A stretch of DNA of 64,000 nt from Escherichia coli (GTDB lineage Bacteria; Pseudomonadota; Gammaproteobacteria; Enterobacterales; Enterobacteriaceae). The position numbers were made by a program, and so were the translations under genes. The notes beneath the pieces were generated by a model. That model was not told the DNA's origin. It did not search any database and worked only from the letters and a program-made list of their open reading frames with translations. The DNA is taken from NCBI RefSeq assembly GCF_003790525.1, contig NZ_CP033635.1; one strand, written 5' to 3'. How positions within the stretch are numbered: position 1 is the first letter of the stretch; each line of letters starts with the position of its first letter. This document shows, in pieces, positions 40,443-50,369 of this stretch.

Positions 40443-40525
40443 ATTGGTTACTATTTAGCACCGTATCAGAGAAAAATCAGGGAGGATTACAGATGGGAAG
40501 CCCGCGACAACGCGGGCTGAAAGCA

Positions 40526-41233
<708 letters not shown>

Positions 41234-41290
41234 TTAGAAAGGAGAAAATCAGGTTTTAACCCGATATCAACGCGATAATTGAATCATTAA

Positions 41291-42214
41291 TCAGGCATGC
41301 TCCAGTGAAAAATTCGGGTAGTGCTCGGCAAAATACTGGCGTAAAAATTCTACCGTTATCCGCACTTTCGCTGACGTCGCCAGCCTTGAAACATAAACGG
41401 CCCAGACGTTCGCTGGCTGGTAATATTCCGGTAGCACTTGCACTAAATGACCACTGGCAATGTTTTCGCTAACATCCCACCAGGAGCGCAGAGCAATCCC
41501 CTGCCCATCGAGACACCACTGATGGACAATTTCTCCATGATTAGACGACAGTGGGCCGGTAACTTTAATCGCATGGTGGCCTTCTTTATTGCGTAATTGC
41601 CAGACACCAAAAGGATGATCGCGCTCTTTAATGACCAGGCACGGCAATGCAGAAAGATCGGTTAAATGTTTCGGCGCGCCATGTTGCGCAATAAATTCCG
41701 GTGACGCGCAGAGAATGCGATAATTGGTCGCCAGTTTGCGGGCGATTAAATTAGGGGCGATATCATCGCCAATGCGAATATCGAGATCGACACCTTCATT
41801 GACCAAATCGACCAACCGGTCTTCCACATCAAAACGTAATTCCAGTTGCGGATACGCCTTCGCCAGCGCTGATAACGCCGGAGCCACCACCTGTCGTCCA
41901 AAACCAAAGCTGCTGATAATACGCAGCATCCCCTGTGGCACCTGACGCACGTCAGAAAGTTCGTCCATCATCTGACCGACATCCTGCAAAATCCGCTGCG
42001 CCCATTCATAAATCCGCTCTCCTTCTTCGGTAATGGTGACGCGGCGGGTGGTGCGGTGTAACAACACCACGTTTAGCGTTTGCTCCAGCAAGGCGATGCG
42101 CTTGCTGACGAACGCCGGAGAAACGCCCAATTCTTCTGCCACGGCGGCAAAACCAGCCCGGCGAGCCACCAGCATAAAGACGCGCAAATCGTTCAGCAGC
42201 GGTAAATTATTCAT
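41291..42214 (-). CDS. dmlR: LysR-family transcriptional regulator
   Basis: 307 aa from MNNLPLLNDLRVF; N-terminal HTH; divergent from dmlA. Confidence 0.88.
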   Translation of the reverse strand: MNNLPLLNDLRVFMLVARRAGFAAVAEELGVSPAFVSKRIALLEQTLNVVLLHRTTRRVTITEEGERIYEWAQRILQDVGQMMDELSDVRQVPQGMLRIISSFGFGRQVVAPALSALAKAYPQLELRFDVEDRLVDLVNEGVDLDIRIGDDIAPNLIARKLATNYRILCASPEFIAQHGAPKHLTDLSALPCLVIKERDHPFGVWQLRNKEGHHAIKVTGPLSSNHGEIVHQWCLDGQGIALRSWWDVSENIASGHLVQVLPEYYQPANVWAVYVSRLATSAKVRITVEFLRQYFAEHYPNFSLEHA

Positions 42215-42316
42215 GATTCGTGTTTTATGTTTCACCAGTTACAGGGATTAATTCCTTTTCAGTCAATTATAGGATGGTGATGTTGTCAATTTTGATGGTC
42301 AGGAAGTGAGAACCCA

Positions 42317-43402
42317 ATGATGAAAACGATCCGTATTGCTGCGATCCCGGGAGACGGGATTGGCAAAGAAGTCCTTCCTGAAGGGATTCGCGTGTTAAAG
42401 GCTGCCGCTGAGCGCTGGGGCTTCGCCTTGAGTTTTGAGCAAATGGAGTGGGCGAGCTGCGAGTATTACAGCCATCACGGTAAAATGATGCCGGACGACT
42501 GGCATGAGCAACTTAGCCGTTTCGACGCCATCTATTTTGGTGCCGTCGGCTGGCCGGATACCGTTCCGGACCATATTTCGTTGTGGGGTTCGCTGCTGAA
42601 ATTTCGTCGTGAGTTCGACCAGTACGTCAACCTGCGCCCGGTTCGTCTCTTTCCTGGCGTTCCCTGCCCGCTGGCGGGAAAACAGCCTGGCGACATCGAT
42701 TTTTACGTGGTCAGGGAAAACACCGAAGGAGAATATTCCTCGCTCGGCGGTAGAGTGAATGAAGGTACAGAGCATGAAGTCGTCATTCAGGAATCGGTAT
42801 TTACGCGTCGTGGTGTCGATCGCATTTTGCGTTATGCCTTTGAACTTGCACAAAGCCGCCCACGTAAGACGCTAACTTCTGCAACTAAATCGAACGGTTT
42901 AGCCATCAGCATGCCGTACTGGGATGAGCGAGTGGAAGCAATGGCCGAGAATTACCCGGAGATCTGCTGGGACAAGCAGCATATTGATATTCTCTGCGCG
43001 CGTTTTGTGATGCAGCCGGAACGCTTCGATGTGGTGGTGGCGTCCAATTTGTTTGGCGATATCCTTTCCGATCTTGGCCCGGCCTGCACCGGCACCATTG
43101 GCATTGCCCCATCCGCCAACCTGAATCCGGAACGCACTTTCCCGTCGCTCTTCGAGCCAGTCCACGGTTCCGCGCCGGATATCTACGGGAAAAACATTGC
43201 TAACCCTATCGCCACAATTTGGGCCGGTGCAATGATGCTCGATTTTCTCGGCAATGGCGATGAGCGTTTCCAGCAAGCGCATAACGGTATTCTGGCCGCG
43301 ATTGAAGAAGTGATTGCTCACGGGCCGAAAACACCTGATATGAAAGGCAATGCCACCACGCCACAGGTTGCCGACGCGATTTGCAAAATTATTTTGCGTT
43401 AA
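42317..43402 (+). CDS. dmlA: D-malate / tartrate dehydrogenase (decarboxylating), isocitrate-isopropylmalate dehydrogenase family
   Basis: 361 aa. Confidence 0.9.
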   Translation: MMKTIRIAAIPGDGIGKEVLPEGIRVLKAAAERWGFALSFEQMEWASCEYYSHHGKMMPDDWHEQLSRFDAIYFGAVGWPDTVPDHISLWGSLLKFRREFDQYVNLRPVRLFPGVPCPLAGKQPGDIDFYVVRENTEGEYSSLGGRVNEGTEHEVVIQESVFTRRGVDRILRYAFELAQSRPRKTLTSATKSNGLAISMPYWDERVEAMAENYPEICWDKQHIDILCARFVMQPERFDVVVASNLFGDILSDLGPACTGTIGIAPSANLNPERTFPSLFEPVHGSAPDIYGKNIANPIATIWAGAMMLDFLGNGDERFQQAHNGILAAIEEVIAHGPKTPDMKGNATTPQVADAICKIILR

Positions 43403-43421
43403 GGTCAAACCAGTTTATTTG

Positions 43422-43448
43422 AACCGCGTCACTGACGCGGTTTTTTTA
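43422..43448 (+). terminator. rho-independent terminator after dmlA
   Basis: Stem CCGCGT / ACGCGG followed by TTTTTTT. Confidence 0.7.
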
Positions 43449-43652
43449 TTCGTTCTTTGCAGTAAATAACCTGCGTCATTTCACCTTTTATTGTTTCCGT
43501 TTCGTGTTTTATGGCTTTCCGTATTCTTAATTGTTTAATTTATGTAACATGCAAATAATCAATTTGTTAATCACGACATACAACTCATTACCCTGCAAAT
43601 AATTACAACTGGCAAAAGCCAGAGACGGGCTTTTATGCCCAGGAGATGACTC

Positions 43653-45263
43653 ATGATGAGCAATGTTAAGAAAAAAGATGTGCCGCTGATAAGCATCAGT
43701 CTGGTGGCCATTCTTTTCATCGCAGCTGCATTAAGCCTTTTCCCACAACAATCGGCCGACGCGGCCAACGCTATATACACTTTTGTTACGCGTACGTTAG
43801 GTTCCGCCGTACAGGTATTGGTTTTGCTGGCAATGGGACTGGTGATTTATTTAGCCACCAGTAAATACGGCAATATTCGTCTTGGCGAAGGAAAACCGGA
43901 ATACAGCACGCTCTCCTGGCTGTTTATGTTTATTTGTGCCGGTTTAGGTTCTTCTACGCTTTATTGGGGGGTTGCTGAATGGGCCTATTATTATCAAACA
44001 CCTGGATTAAATATCGCACCGCGTTCACAACAGGCACTCGAATTTAGCGTCCCTTACTCCTTCTTCCACTGGGGCATCAGCGCCTGGGCAACTTATACGC
44101 TGGCCTCATTAATCATGGCTTATCACTTTCATGTGCGGAAAAACAAAGGTCTGAGTCTTTCCGGCATTATTGCCGCGATTACCGGCGTTCGCCCGCAAGG
44201 CCCGTGGGGAAAACTGGTCGATTTGATGTTCCTGATCGCCACTGTCGGCGCACTGACCATTTCCCTTGTTGTCACCGCAGCAACCTTTACCCGTGGGCTT
44301 TCCGCGCTGACCGGTTTACCCGATAATTTCACCGTGCAGGCATTTGTGATCCTGCTTTCCGGCGGCATTTTTTGCCTAAGCTCATGGATTGGTATCAACA
44401 ACGGTTTGCAACGTCTGAGCAAAATGGTTGGCTGGGGCGCGTTCCTGCTGCCATTACTGGTGCTCATTGTCGGCCCAACCGAATTTATTACCAACAGCAT
44501 CATCAATGCCATCGGCCTGACCACGCAAAACTTCCTGCAAATGAGCTTATTCACCGATCCGCTTGGCGATGGTTCATTTACCCGCAACTGGACCGTTTTC
44601 TACTGGCTGTGGTGGATCTCATACACCCCTGGCGTAGCAATGTTTGTCACCCGCGTTTCCCGCGGTCGTAAGATTAAAGAAGTTATCTGGGGACTGATCC
44701 TCGGCAGCACCGTCGGTTGCTGGTTCTTCTTCGGCGTAATGGAAAGCTATGCCATTCACCAGTTTATCAATGGCGTAATCAACGTCCCACAGGTGCTGGA
44801 AACACTGGGCGGCGAGACAGCTGTGCAGCAAGTTCTGATGTCGTTGCCAGCCGGTAAATTGTTCCTCGCCGCATACCTGGGCGTGATGATTATTTTCCTT
44901 GCCTCGCATATGGATGCAGTGGCCTACACCATGGCGGCGACCAGTACGCGTAATCTCCAGGAAGGTGACGATCCTGACCGTGGGCTGCGTCTTTTCTGGT
45001 GCGTGGTAATTACCCTGATCCCGCTTTCAATTCTTTTCACTGGCGCGTCGCTGGAAACGATGAAAACCACCGTCGTACTCACAGCCCTTCCGTTCCTCGT
45101 CATTTTACTGGTGAAAGTCGGCGGATTTATTCGCTGGCTGAAACAGGATTACGCCGACATTCCGGCTCATCAAGTTGAATATTATCTCCCGCAGACACCG
45201 GTTGAAGCCCTGGAAAAAACACCAGTGCTCCCTGCGGGAACCGTATTCAAAGGCGACAACTGA
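43653..45263 (+). CDS. yeaV: BCCT-family transporter (betaine/carnitine/choline type)
   Basis: ATG at 43653 preceded by AGGAG at 7-nt spacing; polytopic membrane protein; I recall the reference protein as shorter, so the start is uncertain. Confidence 0.8.
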
Positions 45264-45294
45264 GCGCCATCATCCTAACGATAAAGGTATCCCT

Positions 45295-46419
45295 ATGAGC
45301 AATCTGAGCCCTGACTTTGTACTACCCGAAAATTTTTGCGCTAACCCGCAAGAGGCGTGGACCATTCCTGCCCGTTTTTATACCGATCAGAACGCCTTTG
45401 AACACGAAAAAGAGAGCGTCTTCGCCAAAAGCTGGATTTGCGTCGCTCACAGCAGCGAACTGGCGAATGCCAATGATTATGTGACGCGTGAGATCATTGG
45501 CGAAAGCATTGTGCTGGTACGCGGTCGTGATAAGGTTTTGCGCGCGTTCTATAACGTGTGTCCGCACCGTGGTCATCAGTTGTTGAGCGGTGAAGGAAAA
45601 GCGAAAAATGTGATTACCTGCCCATATCACGCATGGGCATTCAAACTCGATGGCAACCTGGCCCATGCACGTAACTGCGAAAACGTCGCCAATTTCGATA
45701 GCGACAAAGCGCAACTGGTTCCGGTGCGTCTGGAAGAATATGCCGGATTCGTCTTCATCAACATGGACCCTAACGCCACCAGCGTAGAAGATCAGTTACC
45801 CGGTCTGGGGGCGAAAGTGCTGGAAGCCTGCCCGGAAGTCCACGACCTGAAACTGGCGGCCCGCTTTACCACCCGCACGCCTGCCAACTGGAAGAACATT
45901 GTCGATAACTATCTCGAGTGCTATCACTGTGGTCCGGCGCATCCAGGTTTCTCCGACTCCGTACAGGTTGATCGTTACTGGCACACCATGCACGGTAACT
46001 GGACGCTGCAATACGGTTTCGCCAAACCGTCCGAACAGTCTTTCAAATTCGAAGAGGGCACGGATGCGGCATTCCACGGTTTCTGGCTGTGGCCGTGCAC
46101 GATGCTGAACGTCACCCCAATCAAAGGGATGATGACGGCCATTTATGAATTCCCAGTGGATTCTGAAACTACCCTGCAAAACTACGATATTTACTTCACC
46201 AATGAAGAGTTAACCGACGAGCAAAAATCGCTGATTGAGTGGTATCGCGATGTGTTCCGTCCGGAAGATTTACGTCTGGTTGAAAGCGTACAGAAAGGGC
46301 TGAAATCGCGTGGCTATCGTGGTCAGGGGCGCATCATGGCCGACAGTAGCGGTAGCGGAATTTCCGAACATGGTATCGCCCATTTCCATAATCTGCTGGC
46401 GCAGGTGTTTAAGGACTAA
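45295..46419 (+). CDS. yeaW: Rieske-type [2Fe-2S] oxygenase subunit (carnitine monooxygenase type)
   Basis: 374 aa from MSNLSPDFVLPENF; Rieske motif CPHRGH...CPYHAW. Confidence 0.9.
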   Translation: MSNLSPDFVLPENFCANPQEAWTIPARFYTDQNAFEHEKESVFAKSWICVAHSSELANANDYVTREIIGESIVLVRGRDKVLRAFYNVCPHRGHQLLSGEGKAKNVITCPYHAWAFKLDGNLAHARNCENVANFDSDKAQLVPVRLEEYAGFVFINMDPNATSVEDQLPGLGAKVLEACPEVHDLKLAARFTTRTPANWKNIVDNYLECYHCGPAHPGFSDSVQVDRYWHTMHGNWTLQYGFAKPSEQSFKFEEGTDAAFHGFWLWPCTMLNVTPIKGMMTAIYEFPVDSETTLQNYDIYFTNEELTDEQKSLIEWYRDVFRPEDLRLVESVQKGLKSRGYRGQGRIMADSSGSGISEHGIAHFHNLLAQVFKD

Positions 46420-46474
46420 TGACATCAGCGGCGGTATTTTCCGCCGCTGGGCTGATTTTTGATGGAGTACAGCA

Positions 46475-47440
46475 ATGTCAGACTATCAAATGTTTGAAGT
46501 ACAGGTGAACCAAATTGAACCGCTTACCGAACAGGTGAAACGCTTCACGCTGGTGGCAACCGATGGCAAACCATTACCTGCGTTTACCGGAGGAAGTCAC
46601 GTCATTGTGCAGATGAGCGATGGTGATAACGAGTACAGCAATGCGTATTCACTACTGAGTTCGCCGCATGACACCTCTTGTTATCAGATTGCCGTTCGGC
46701 TGGAGGAAAACTCGCGCGGCGGTTCCCGCTTTTTGCATCAGCAGGTAAAAGTGGGCGATCGGTTAACGATTTCAACGCCTAATAACCTGTTTGCGCTAAT
46801 TCCCTCGGCCAGAAAGCATCTGTTTATCGCGGGAGGCATTGGTATCACCCCTTTCCTGTCGCACCTGGCAGAGATGCAATACAGCGACGTCGACTGGCAG
46901 TTACATTACTGCTCACGAAATCCAGAAAGTTGCGCATTTCGTGATGAGCTAGTCCAGCATCCGCAGGCTGAGAAAGTTCATTTTCATCACTCATCAACCG
47001 GAACACGACTGGAATTAGCGCGATTATTGACGGATATCGAACCTGGCACACATGTTTATACCTGTGGCCCCGAGGCGCTAAATGAGGCGGTAAGAAGTGA
47101 AGCTGCGCGTCTGGACATCGCCGTCGATACGATGCACTTTGAACAATTTGCGATTGAAGACAAAACCGGCGATGCATTTACCCTGGTGCTTGCCCGTTCC
47201 GGTAAAGAGTTTGTGGTGCCGGAAGAGATGACTATTTTGCAGGTTATTGAAAATAATAAAGCAGCGAAAGTGGAATGTTTATGTCGTGAAGGGGTATGCG
47301 GAACCTGCGAAACGGCAATACTGGAAGGTGAAGCTGACCATCGGGATCAGTATTTTAGCGATGAAGAGCGTGCCAGCCAGCAAAGTATGTTGATCTGTTG
47401 TTCGCGCGCGAAGGGTAAACGCCTGGTGTTGGATTTGTAG
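46475..47440 (+). CDS. yeaX: oxygenase reductase subunit (flavin/NAD-binding domain plus plant-type 2Fe-2S ferredoxin)
   Basis: 321 aa; C-terminal CREGVCGTCE ferredoxin motif. Confidence 0.9.
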   Translation: MSDYQMFEVQVNQIEPLTEQVKRFTLVATDGKPLPAFTGGSHVIVQMSDGDNEYSNAYSLLSSPHDTSCYQIAVRLEENSRGGSRFLHQQVKVGDRLTISTPNNLFALIPSARKHLFIAGGIGITPFLSHLAEMQYSDVDWQLHYCSRNPESCAFRDELVQHPQAEKVHFHHSSTGTRLELARLLTDIEPGTHVYTCGPEALNEAVRSEAARLDIAVDTMHFEQFAIEDKTGDAFTLVLARSGKEFVVPEEMTILQVIENNKAAKVECLCREGVCGTCETAILEGEADHRDQYFSDEERASQQSMLICCSRAKGKRLVLDL

Positions 47441-47444
47441 TTTG

Positions 47445-47480
47445 CCGAAGCCGGACTGAGCGCGCTCAGTCCGGCTTCGG
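47445..47480. terminator. perfect 16-bp-stem hairpin between convergent yeaX and rnd
   Basis: CCGAAGCCGGACTGAG-CGCG-CTCAGTCCGGCTTCGG, perfectly complementary arms. Confidence 0.65.
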
Positions 47481-47486
47481 AAGATT

Positions 47487-48614
47487 TTACTGCGGATATT
47501 CCTGCAATAAATTGTGTAATGCTTCCGCCATCAGCTCACCACGCCAGCCGGAAATCAGCTCCGGCAAATTGTTCTGCGGTTTCAGTTTCCAGTGCCAGTT
47601 CAGCAGTTGGTTGATTTGCCGACGCGATGCCAGCAATTCGGCGCTGATCTTGTGCGTTTCGCTCACGTCAGTAATCAGCGACTTAATCGCTTTAAACGCT
47701 TTACGATAACCCGGCATGTCCATCAGGTTAAGCATCGGCTGCGGTAAGGCCTCTTCCGGCAATGTCTGCGCTTTTTCCACCAGCGCCAGCAGCGTTTTAC
47801 CGTGAAAGCGGATTTCGCTACCGGATAAACCCAGGCTGTCCAGTTCGCCTAAACTTCCCGGCATATAACGCGCTACAGACCACAAATGCTCTTCACGCAC
47901 GACAAAGTTCACTGCCAGATCGCGCTCCCGCGCCTTGCGCAGTCGCCAATCGGCTAACAGTTGCAGACAGGCCAGTTGGCGTGTGCGTAACTGCCAGGCA
48001 TTGGTGATATCACGCCAGGCATCTTCCGGCGCAACGACTTCCTGACGACGCATTTGCATCAGGCGGCATTCATCCAGCGCCGCAGGTAGCCAGCCGGAGG
48101 CCTCCGTTTCTACCATAAGCTTGGCGGTGATCGGTAACAAATACCAGACATCCGCCGCTGCGTATTCACACTGACGTTCGGTCAGCGGTCTGGCCAGCCA
48201 GTCGGTGCGCGATTCACTCTTGTCCAGCGTAACGCCGGAATACTCTTCCACCATGGAAGCAAAACCCCATGACATCGGGCGTCCGCAGAAGGCAGCAAGG
48301 ATTTGCGTGTCAATCAGGGGTTGTGGTAATTCGCCAAAGACATTGAGGAACACTTCCAGATCTTCACTGCCCGCATGGAGAAATTTTGTGATGGACGGAT
48401 CGCGCAGGATCGCTTTCAGTGGTGACCAGTCGGAGATCCCGAGAGGATCAATTAGCGCCAGATGCTCACCATCAAAAAGTTGAATTAGACCTAGCTGCGG
48501 GTAATAGGTGCGCGTACGAACAAATTCAGTATCCAGGGCTATCGCCGGAAAGGCACGGACGGCTTCACACAAAGAAGCCAGCGCATCGTCCGTGGTAATC
48601 ATTTGGTAATTCAA
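47487..48614 (-). CDS. rnd: ribonuclease D
   Basis: 375 aa; DEDD exonuclease motif ALDTEF; initiates at UUG (CAA on plus strand at 48612-48614). Confidence 0.9.
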   Translation of the reverse strand: MNYQMITTDDALASLCEAVRAFPAIALDTEFVRTRTYYPQLGLIQLFDGEHLALIDPLGISDWSPLKAILRDPSITKFLHAGSEDLEVFLNVFGELPQPLIDTQILAAFCGRPMSWGFASMVEEYSGVTLDKSESRTDWLARPLTERQCEYAAADVWYLLPITAKLMVETEASGWLPAALDECRLMQMRRQEVVAPEDAWRDITNAWQLRTRQLACLQLLADWRLRKARERDLAVNFVVREEHLWSVARYMPGSLGELDSLGLSGSEIRFHGKTLLALVEKAQTLPEEALPQPMLNLMDMPGYRKAFKAIKSLITDVSETHKISAELLASRRQINQLLNWHWKLKPQNNLPELISGWRGELMAEALHNLLQEYPQ

Positions 48615-48638
48615 ATTGTATTCTCTTTAGTGGGCGTC

Positions 48639-48664
48639 AAAAAAAACGCCGGATTAACCGGCGT
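48639..48664 (-). terminator. fadD terminator hairpin plus U8, also the element upstream of the rnd UUG start
   Basis: Stem ACGCCGG / CCGGCGT with 5-nt loop followed on the minus strand by eight U, 24 nt before the rnd UUG. Confidence 0.8.
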
Positions 48665-48683
48665 CTGACGACTGACTTAACGC

Positions 48684-50369
48684 TCAGGCTTTATTGTCCA
48701 CTTTGCCGCGCGCTTCGTCACGTAATTCTCGTCGCAAAATTTTTCCGACGTTAGATTTCGGTAACTCATCACGAAACTCCACCAGCTTCGGTACTTTGTA
48801 GCCCGTGAGCTGACGGCGGCAAAAAGTCACCAGTGACTCTTCGGTAAGCGATGGATCTTTTTTCACAACGAAGATTTTCACCGCTTCACCACTAGAGCCG
48901 GAAGGTACGCCAACAGCCGCGACTTCCTGTACGCCAGGATGCTGCATGACGACATCTTCAATCTCGTTGGGATAGACGTTAAAACCGGAAACCAGAATCA
49001 TGTCTTTTTTACGATCGACAATGCGCAGGAATCCTTCTTCATCCATCACCGCGATGTCGCCGGTGTGTAACCAGCCATTTTTGATGATTTCATCGGTAGC
49101 ATCCGGACGCTGCCAGTAACCCAGCATCACCTGCGGTCCTTTGACACAAAGCTCACCTGGTTGACCAGGTGGTACTTCATTATCATCATCATCCACCAGT
49201 TTGGCTTCCGTCGACGGCACCGGCAAACCGATGCTACCACTATGATAATCAATATCATACGGGTTAACGCTCACCAGCGGCGCACACTCGGTCAGGCCAT
49301 AACCTTCCAGCAGATACTGTCCAGTCAGTTTCACCCAACGTTCTGCCACCACTTGCTGAACAGGCATCCCTCCGCCTGCGGAAAGATGCAGACTGGAGAA
49401 ATCCAGCTGCTGGAACTCTTTATTGTTCAGCAACGCATTGAACAAGGTGTTAACGCCAGTGATAGCGGTAAACGGATATTTCGCTAACTCTTTTACCAAC
49501 CCTGGAATATCGCGCGGGTTAGTGATAAGCAGGTTCTGCCCCCCCAGTTCGATAAACAGCAGGCAGTTAATGGTCAGTGCAAAAATGTGATACAGCGGCA
49601 GCGCCGTCACCACCAGCTCTTTGCCCGGATGCAACAGCGGACCATAGGTCGCGTTAACCTGTTCCAGGTTCGCCAGCATATTGCGGTGAGTCAGCATCGC
49701 GCCTTTCGCCACACCAGTGGTACCGCCGGTGTATTGCAGGAAAGCTAAATCTTCCGGCACCAGTTCGGGTTTGACGTACTGCATCCGGTAGCCGTTGTGC
49801 AGGGCGCTACGAAATGAAATGGCATCTGGCAGATGGTATTTCGGCACCAGACGCTTGATGTATTTAACAACGAAATTGACTACCGTGCCTTTTGCCGTAG
49901 ATAGCTGATCGCCCATACGGGTCAGAATTACGTGCTGAACGGCGGTTTTATCAACCACTTTTTCCAGAGTGTGGGCAAAGTTAGACACGATAACAATCGC
50001 CGATGCGCCGCTATCGTTAAGCTGATGCTCAAGTTCACGCGGGGTATACAACGGGTTAACGTTTACGACAATCATCCCGGCACGCAAAATGCCAAACAGC
50101 GCCACCGGATATTGCAATAAATTAGGCATCATCAACGCAACGCGATCGCCTTTCTTCAGTCCCAACCCTTGTTGCAAATAAGCGGCAAACGCGCGACTGC
50201 GTTCTTCCAGTTTGCGGAAGGTCATCACCTCCCCCATATTCACAAACGCGGGTTGATCGGCGTAGCGCGCGACCGACTGCTCAAACATATCTACCAGAGA
50301 TTGATAACGGTCAGGGTTGATCTCCGTCGGAACGTCCGCGGGATAACGGTTAAGCCAAACCTTCTTCAA
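48684..50369 (-). CDS. fadD: long-chain-fatty-acid--CoA ligase
   Basis: 561 aa from TTG ([10 protein letters not shown] read as MKKVW) with GAGGTG Shine-Dalgarno; AMP-binding signature [18 protein letters not shown]. Confidence 0.9.

Follow-up and report, generated by a model that had tools for sequence, protein, structure and literature searches.

Do the five adjacent genes dmlR, dmlA, yeaV, yeaW and yeaX of Escherichia coli serve one pathway under one regulator, and how did they come to lie side by side? The question is raised here by a block in a 64,000-nucleotide stretch of the E. coli contig NZ_CP033635.1 (assembly GCF_003790525.1), the whole of which is called the window below. Positions 41000-48000 of the window (7 kb) match the SMS-3-5 chromosome of E. 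coli (NC_010498.1) with 100% identity, and the gene set was confirmed from the listing of open reading frames (ORFs) and from the RefSeq annotation of the identical SMS-3-5 stretch. As an earlier note on this DNA had described, dmlR diverges from dmlA, which is followed by the gene of a BCCT transporter and by those of a Rieske oxygenase and its reductase, all five at the positions claimed (Table 1); leuE flanks the block at the left and rnd-fadD at the right. The block is the known E. coli dmlR-dmlA-yeaV-yeaW-yeaX locus, and the link from carnitine to D-malate that had been proposed for it is already published. What is added here is the conserved gene order, the demonstration that the block is not an island, the loss of the malic semialdehyde dehydrogenase gene (msadh) under continued selection, a sequence box shared by two control regions and a survey of the E. 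coli alleles. Taken as a whole, the evidence makes it fairly likely that the block is a vertically inherited, reduced form of the operon carR-mdh-bcct-(hyd)-cntA-msadh-cntB, with a mechanism leading from carnitine to pyruvate and its five genes joined in one DmlR regulon.

The carnitine route and its enzymes

In Acinetobacter baumannii, L-carnitine is cleaved by CntA/CntB into trimethylamine (TMA) and malic semialdehyde, the latter is oxidized to D-malate by a malic semialdehyde dehydrogenase (MSA-DH), and a decarboxylating malate dehydrogenase (MDH) yields pyruvate and CO2 from D-malate (Piskol et al. 2024, PMC11353897). The same authors equate the five E. coli genes with carR-mdh-bcct-cntA-cntB (45/72/56/72/52% identity), and our tblastn comparisons with Acinetobacter loci gave 45-49, 70-72, 53-54, 71-74 and 48-51% for dmlR, dmlA, yeaV, yeaW and yeaX, respectively, the A. 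baumannii values of 45/72/54/73/50% agreeing with the published ones. The A. baumannii operon, carR/mdh-bcct(aci01347)-hyd-cntA-msadh-cntB, has the order and orientation of the five shared genes and the oxygenase chemistry in common with E. coli, whereas its hyd and msadh are missing from the E. coli cluster, for which GabD has been named as a distant candidate substitute (PMC11353897). E. coli YeaW and YeaX, cloned from strain KO11FL, have been purified and display carnitine monooxygenase activity (Piskol et al. 2022, PMC9508527); the YeaW/YeaX and CntA/CntB subunits were shown to be interchangeable in the same work, and Rath et al. 2017 (PMC5433236) argued that yeaW simply is cntA. The assay of TMA formation from carnitine that the earlier note had proposed for YeaW/YeaX is therefore already in the literature, and it bears out the identification of the pair as a carnitine monooxygenase with TMA and a four-carbon acid as its products. 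The accompanying idea of a role for the neighboring malate-type dehydrogenase in processing the carbon product corresponds to the published A. baumannii pathway, to which the E. coli cluster has been named orthologous (PMC11353897). DmlA itself is described there, on the basis of earlier literature, as a generalist D-malate, tartrate and isopropylmalate dehydrogenase.

Over residues 4-371, YeaW aligns with the crystallized CntA of A. baumannii (PDB 6Y8J) with E = 1.2e-196, the next family following at E = 6e-33. Its Rieske motif C-x-H-x17-C-x2-H, CPHRGHQLLSGEGKAKNVITCPYH, starts at residue 89, has C89, H91, C109 and H112 as ligands and aligns with the motif of 6Y8J. The mononuclear iron motif E208-x2-H211-x4-H216 (ECYHCGPAH, residues 208-216) is accompanied by D325 in the segment RPED, and both are identical in the aligned CntA; we take the equivalent CntA residues to be E205, H208, H213 and D323. 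The annotation starts yeaW at the ATG at 45295 and the ORF list at a TTG at 45175. YeaX is made up of the Pfam domains FAD_binding_6 (residues 9-103), NAD_binding_1 (117-207) and Fer2, of the plant-type [2Fe-2S] kind (240-313), with the motifs C-x4-C-x2-C-x29-C from residue 270 and GGIGITP at residue 120, and its gene starts 55 bp past the end of yeaW. The stretches by which the pair had first been recognized, CPHRGH...CPYHAW in YeaW and CREGVCGTCE in YeaX, are indeed present, the former in the Rieske motif and the latter inside C-x4-C-x2-C-x29-C. GbcAB and other group V Rieske oxygenases of quaternary amines resemble YeaW/YeaX in their Rieske and mononuclear-iron oxygenase, their flavin and [2Fe-2S] reductase and their cleavage of a C-N bond. 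Nevertheless, YeaW scores 154 bits on the GbcA model, so far under the cut-off of 670 that its identity as a GbcA (glycine betaine monooxygenase) is ruled out, and its substrate is carnitine or gamma-butyrobetaine.

For the remaining proteins, YeaV reaches 1030.8 bits over residues 1-536 on the BCCT model NF007412 (cut-off 647) and 548 bits on TIGR00842 (cut-off 408); it is a BCCT transporter whose cargo, judging from orthology, is presumably carnitine or gamma-butyrobetaine. DmlA passes the tartrate dehydrogenase equivalog TIGR02089 (563.4 bits, cut-off 470.4). DmlR matches LysR-family models of NCBIfam, among which that of TtdR is the nearest, with a score under the TtdR cut-off.

From these elements the following mechanism may be proposed for E. 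coli. YeaV would import L-carnitine or gamma-butyrobetaine, as suggested by its orthology with the A. baumannii transporter. Electrons from NADH would pass through the flavin and the [2Fe-2S] cluster of YeaX to YeaW, where carnitine would be hydroxylated and split into TMA and malic semialdehyde, a step shown biochemically with the E. coli proteins. An unlinked aldehyde dehydrogenase, with GabD as the nearest paralogue, may then oxidize malic semialdehyde to D-malate, and DmlA would convert D-malate to pyruvate and CO2, an activity known from the literature cited in PMC11353897.

Conservation of the cluster and loss of msadh

The distribution of the cluster was studied by scanning one genome per species (GTDB) with YeaW and keeping the best 80 loci. 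Among these, 74 have enough upstream DNA, and 56 of the 74 show the order dmlR (divergent), dmlA, yeaV, yeaW. This order spans Escherichia, Citrobacter, Yersinia, Serratia, Xenorhabdus, Pseudomonas, Acinetobacter and Neisseriales; the main exception is Paraburkholderia, where dmlA is often near but on the opposite strand. Between cntA and cntB, msadh is present in 60 of 78 loci. It is found in none of the four Escherichia clusters, unlike in Citrobacter and other Enterobacteriaceae, where it is retained in 8 of 13 loci and missing from the other 5, and it is also missing from some loci of Xenorhabdus, Yersinia, Serratia, Pseudomonas and Neisseriales. The six-gene form of Citrobacter, dmlR/dmlA-yeaV-yeaW-msadh-yeaX, lies in the same rnd-fadD neighborhood as the E. 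coli block and has the same control boxes, and its DmlR, DmlA, YeaV and YeaW are 90-94% identical to those of E. coli. When the Citrobacter msadh was used as a query, no orthologue was found in 5426 complete E. coli genomes, the best DNA match being gabD at ~70%.

Traces of the missing gene can still be recognized. The hairpin in the 55-bp spacer between yeaW and yeaX (Table 1) is homologous to the one in the msadh-cntB spacer of msadh-bearing Citrobacter and marks the site of the loss, and in the msadh-less Citrobacter loci the final ~10 nt of msadh remain as a scar. Given the conserved order elsewhere, the retained spacer hairpin, the Citrobacter scars and the lack of msadh in the E. coli genomes, the sequences indicate that Escherichia inherited the operon and then lost msadh. 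The ratios of nonsynonymous to synonymous substitutions (dN/dS) between SMS-3-5 and E. albertii are 0.016 for dmlR, 0.029 for dmlA, 0.035 for yeaV, 0.015 for yeaW and 0.087 for yeaX, with dS of 0.7-0.95, and 0.008-0.019 for the flanking leuE, rnd and fadD. Since these ratios are low and all four Escherichia loci are without msadh, this comparison indicates that the five genes have been under strong purifying selection long after msadh was lost.

Control regions of dmlA and yeaV

Exactly two copies of the 13-mer TTCGTGTTTTATG exist in the 64 kb of the window, in the same orientation, one in the divergent dmlR/dmlA control region and one in the candidate yeaVWX promoter region, against a chance expectation of 0.15 allowing one mismatch. 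The conservation of this box was evaluated in 23 Enterobacterales loci (476 kb). Its core 9-mer GTGTTTTAT is found in the dmlA-yeaV spacer of all 23 loci and in the dmlR-dmlA spacer of 15, with only two matches elsewhere in the 476 kb; in the dmlR-dmlA spacer of Xenorhabdus, GTAAATTAT stands in place of GTGTTTTAT. On the dmlR side, the 13-mer falls inside the 21 nt that separate the GTG at 42235, where the ORF list starts dmlR, from the annotated ATG at 42214, and for this reason these 21 nt fit a leader or operator rather than coding sequence. The start of GTGTTTTAT precedes the -10-like hexamer TAGGAT (42270-42275) of the dmlR/dmlA region by 50 nt. On the yeaV side, a -35-like TTGTTT (43531-43536) is followed by a 17-nt spacer and a -10-like AATAAT (43554-43559), with the start of GTGTTTTAT ~50 nt upstream, and a TTAATT block stands between box and hexamer in both control regions. 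The promoters assigned in this way before dmlA and yeaV are putative, have a weak -35 element and rest on conservation; a scan with consensus promoters detected no sigma-70 site before either gene.

Just past dmlA lies a terminator-like hairpin that is conserved in the Escherichia and Citrobacter spacers, which makes it unlikely that yeaVWX depends on read-through alone. We suggest that this terminator ends the dmlA unit and that yeaVWX would be transcribed from a separate activator-type promoter, laid out like that of dmlA. Because the same 13-mer stands 50 nt upstream of a -10-like hexamer at both promoters, the two transcription units probably form one DmlR regulon; the sequence leans towards this answer without proving it, and D-malate, as an intermediate of the pathway, is a plausible inducer. 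DmlR reportedly activates dmlA in response to D-malate. In A. baumannii, CarR binds the corresponding region (cited in PMC11353897); for E. coli, no regulon experiment on the five genes was found in the searchable literature. The layouts of the two groups differ: the mdh-bcct spacer of Acinetobacter is ~57 bp long, which is consistent with one operon, whereas that of Enterobacterales measures 250-620 bp and contains the second control box, together with the hairpin in Escherichia and Citrobacter. The dmlR-dmlA system for D-malate in E. coli K-12 consists of the same genes, 99% identical to the copies of the window, and the work on it (Lukas et al. 2010; Vorobieva et al. 2014) treats dmlRA alone. 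In K-12, yeaV is without the start codon and some of the sequence upstream, and the loss of this 5' end makes a link between dmlRA and yeaVWX hard to see in that strain.

Other descriptions of the box were also considered. A rigid 24-nt weight matrix derived from the dmlR-side boxes places the yeaV-side box among the top 2-4 matches in ~11 of 16 loci, a weakness due to the half-site spacing, which differs by one base, so that the count of the 9-mer GTGTTTTAT is the cleaner test. A CRP site (GTG-N10-CAC) was rejected as the explanation of the common box: the yeaV-side copies have N11 and the Escherichia copy is without the CAC half. In the ttdR-ttdA control region, which belongs to the closest paralogue TtdR, GTGTTTTAT was not found and there is only a vague TGTTAAT/TTCAC likeness.

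Two further elements were noticed upstream of yeaV. Phased TGTTAA-like repeats (TGTTTAA, TGTAAC and TGTTAAT) with an 11-bp spacing at 43525-43575 resemble ArcA direct repeats, and the dmlA-yeaV spacers of three Pseudomonas loci (L031, L038 and L041) have two or three GTTAAC-like copies at the corresponding place, three of them in L041. Oxygen control would make sense, as the enzyme is O2-dependent. Directly upstream of the yeaV Shine-Dalgarno sequence, at 43609-43640, are the GC hairpins GGC-N4-GCC and GGGC-N6-GCCC; across Escherichia and Citrobacter their stems are invariant and their loops variable, and a covariation test saw no compensatory changes.

Several observations weigh against one pathway under one regulator. 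The hairpin between dmlA and yeaV is a strong one. In Escherichia the yeaV-side box has TTTCC as its right half, versus TTCAC in most other Enterobacterales, the spacing from GTG to CAC differs by one base between the dmlA and yeaV sites, and the conserved box could belong to another factor than DmlR. With neither msadh nor hyd in the cluster, the pathway is incomplete in cis in E. coli. Finally, growth on carnitine has been demonstrated for A. baumannii and for no tested E. coli: K-12, B and BL21 fail to grow on it, BL21 extracts are without activity and cntA expression is absent from public data sets (PMC11353897). In another study, E. coli MKH13 took up no carnitine (PMC6562126); this strain is presumably a K-12 derivative.

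One possibility is then that dmlR-dmlA and yeaVWX are independent modules that are merely adjacent, with no carbon flowing from YeaW to DmlA. In that case, dmlR-dmlA would allow D-malate or tartrate from outside to be used and would back up LeuB, and yeaVWX, separately controlled, would only trim the intracellular pools of carnitine in its role as a compatible solute. The terminator-like hairpin past dmlA, the absence of msadh from all 5426 E. coli genomes and the negative growth tests of K-12, B and BL21 are in line with this scenario, as is the proposal that clusters devoid of msadh and/or mdh mainly adjust carnitine levels (PMC11353897). Nevertheless, 56 of the 74 loci, spread over several orders of Proteobacteria and some of them in species with a demonstrated D-malate pathway, share the arrangement LysR-mdh-bcct-cntA, and the upstream regions of dmlA and yeaV have the conserved box in common. 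Moreover, the negative growth tests concern strains with a deletion at the 5' end of yeaV (shown for K-12 and for a BL21(DE3) derivative, see below), and E. coli lies outside the fully "devoid" class, as it keeps mdh (dmlA). A separation of the two halves thus seems unlikely to us, and the reduced operon under DmlR is the interpretation that we retain.

Alleles of the cluster in E. coli

The 7-kb stretch was compared by megablast with the 5426 complete E. coli genomes, all but one of which contain part or whole of it. At least 80% of the 7 kb is covered in 4366 genomes. In ~1059 others (~20%) only scars are left, almost the whole block having gone through at least three deletions. The scars map to 41100-41458 (the end of leuE and the 3' end of dmlR), 42665-42837 (a dmlA fragment with 92% identity), 43391-43427 (the end of dmlA) and 47417-47579 (the end of yeaX, the terminator and rnd). 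E. coli S21EC is an example (L002 3292-3707), in which 41291-41458 of dmlR, 42665-42837 and 43391-43427 of dmlA and 47417-47440 of yeaX remain; PGAP calls such remnants pseudogenes.

A second kind of variation affects the transporter gene. The 225-bp segment that covers the start of yeaV (Table 1) is present in 2930 of the 5426 genomes (~54%), which have the intact allele, including the SMS-3-5 window, and is missing from ~1436 (~26%) otherwise complete clusters. Carriers of the deletion include K-12 MG1655, a K-12-like genome (L003) and BLK16, a BL21(DE3) derivative. In K-12 the deletion starts inside the proposed -10 hexamer of yeaV, and the annotation of the gene restarts at residue 56 of the full protein, within the second hydrophobic segment. 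PGAP labels yeaV incomplete in the K-12-like genome and in BLK16, and the MG1655 record has a shortened yeaV of 481 amino acids described as a "putative transporter"; no mention of the K-12 truncation was found in the searchable literature. Since E. whittamii Sa2BVA5 also has an independent, frameshifting yeaV deletion of 89 bp (L005 8996-9003, corresponding to ~44209-44297, with an 8-bp junction overlap), yeaV seems to be the recurrent target of damage within the cluster.

The presence of the yeaV 5' deletion in K-12 and in a BL21(DE3) derivative weakens the negative results on carnitine obtained with K-12, B and BL21. The deletion is shown for these two. Published yeaV knockout and overexpression experiments and carnitine growth tests appear to be K-12 or B based, the strain being confirmed for some of the papers only. 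It is conceivable, if doubtful on present evidence, that in strains with the intact allele DmlR governs all five genes as one regulon through two parallel promoters and that, with a recruited aldehyde dehydrogenase encoded elsewhere, these strains can convert carnitine or gamma-butyrobetaine aerobically into TMA and pyruvate. If that were true, the view of E. coli as a species that does not grow on carnitine and does not express cntA would partly reflect the choice of strains with a truncated yeaV.

Alternatively, the cluster could be a decaying remnant, whose pathway became useless after the loss of msadh and whose genes are turning into pseudogenes. The lost msadh, the ~1059 genomes with scars only, the ~1436 with the 225-bp deletion and the frameshift of E. 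whittamii all point in that direction. Yet, dN/dS remains at 0.015-0.087 in all five genes with dS of ~0.7-0.95, the full 5' segment of yeaV is kept in 54% of the genomes and full in vitro activity has been found for the E. coli enzyme (PMC9508527), which makes such a general decay very improbable.

A horizontally acquired metabolic island, as the label "island-like" in the earlier note implied and as the varying presence of the block among E. coli genomes might suggest, is already contradicted by the evidence and has next to no chance of being correct: the GC content of 0.47-0.53 is near that of the flanks, no mobility genes are annotated around the block in RefSeq, the rnd-fadD flank is common to Citrobacter and the leuE...rnd frame to every Escherichia species sampled, and the genomes where the block is "absent" hold fragments of dmlR, dmlA and yeaX, that is, deletion scars instead of an empty site. 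Neither composition, nor mobility genes, nor insertion into a conserved site marks the block as a genomic island; it is ancestral and is eroding in some lineages. The lowest GC value, 0.47, is a dip at the dmlA-yeaV spacer and the start of yeaV.

TMA formed from dietary carnitine by gut Enterobacteriaceae is linked to cardiovascular risk, and counts of cntA/yeaW genes are used to estimate the TMA potential of microbiomes. The locus and its logic being known, the finding itself adds nothing new on that potential. In cntA-positive E. coli the cluster may be intact or have a decapitated transporter gene (~26%), or almost nothing of it may be left (~20%), and it never includes msadh; surveys of gene presence and the negative K-12 and B results are to be read in the light of these alleles. 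For research on TMA production, the survey of alleles and the common box amount to helpful footnotes rather than a new kind of discovery, and the box before dmlA and yeaV offers a direct and cheap handle on the regulon question.

Table 1. Features of the dmlR-dmlA-yeaV-yeaW-yeaX block and its spacers (positions in the window)
Feature	Position	Strand	Description	Basis
dmlR	41291-42214	-	LysR-type regulator; orthologue of A. baumannii carR, ~45% identity	RefSeq, NCBIfam
Divergent dmlR/dmlA control region	42215-42316		13-mer TTCGTGTTTTATG at 42217-42229; TAGGAT; GTCAAT repeats after	
dmlA	42317-43402	+	Decarboxylating D-malate/tartrate/3-isopropylmalate dehydrogenase; orthologue of A. baumannii mdh, 72%	
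Intrinsic-terminator-like hairpin	43421-43450	+	10-bp stem and T7 run just past dmlA	Terminator scan
Candidate yeaVWX promoter region	43501-43559	+	Second 13-mer at 43501-43513; TTAATTG block	Sequence and conservation
225-bp variable segment	43556-43780		Codons 1-43 of yeaV and the 97 bp before them, ribosome-binding site included	Alignment with K-12-like genome
yeaV	43653-45263	+	Full-length BCCT transporter, 536 amino acids; orthologue of A. baumannii carnitine transporter Aci01347, 54%	
yeaW	45295-46419	+	Carnitine monooxygenase oxygenase subunit, CntA orthologue	
Hairpin in yeaW-yeaX spacer	46425-46450	+	In the 55-bp spacer	Terminator scan, spacer comparison
yeaX	46475-47440	+	Carnitine monooxygenase reductase subunit, CntB orthologue	
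36-bp perfect palindrome	47445-47480		Between the convergent yeaX and rnd stop codons	Self-BLAST

The palindrome that follows yeaX is probably a bidirectional terminator, and it is kept in the deletion-scar genomes. An Rfam scan of 40500-48800 at E <= 1 gave nothing inside the block beyond sub-threshold chance matches; outside it, between rnd and fadD, the small RNA sroD was found at 48640-48725 on the minus strand (RF00370, 115 bits, E = 2e-23). In SMS-3-5-like chromosomes, part of the 7-kb query has a second megablast place, which lies outside this window, and across the genome collection there are two plasmid-borne places for the 7-kb query and one for the 225-bp segment.

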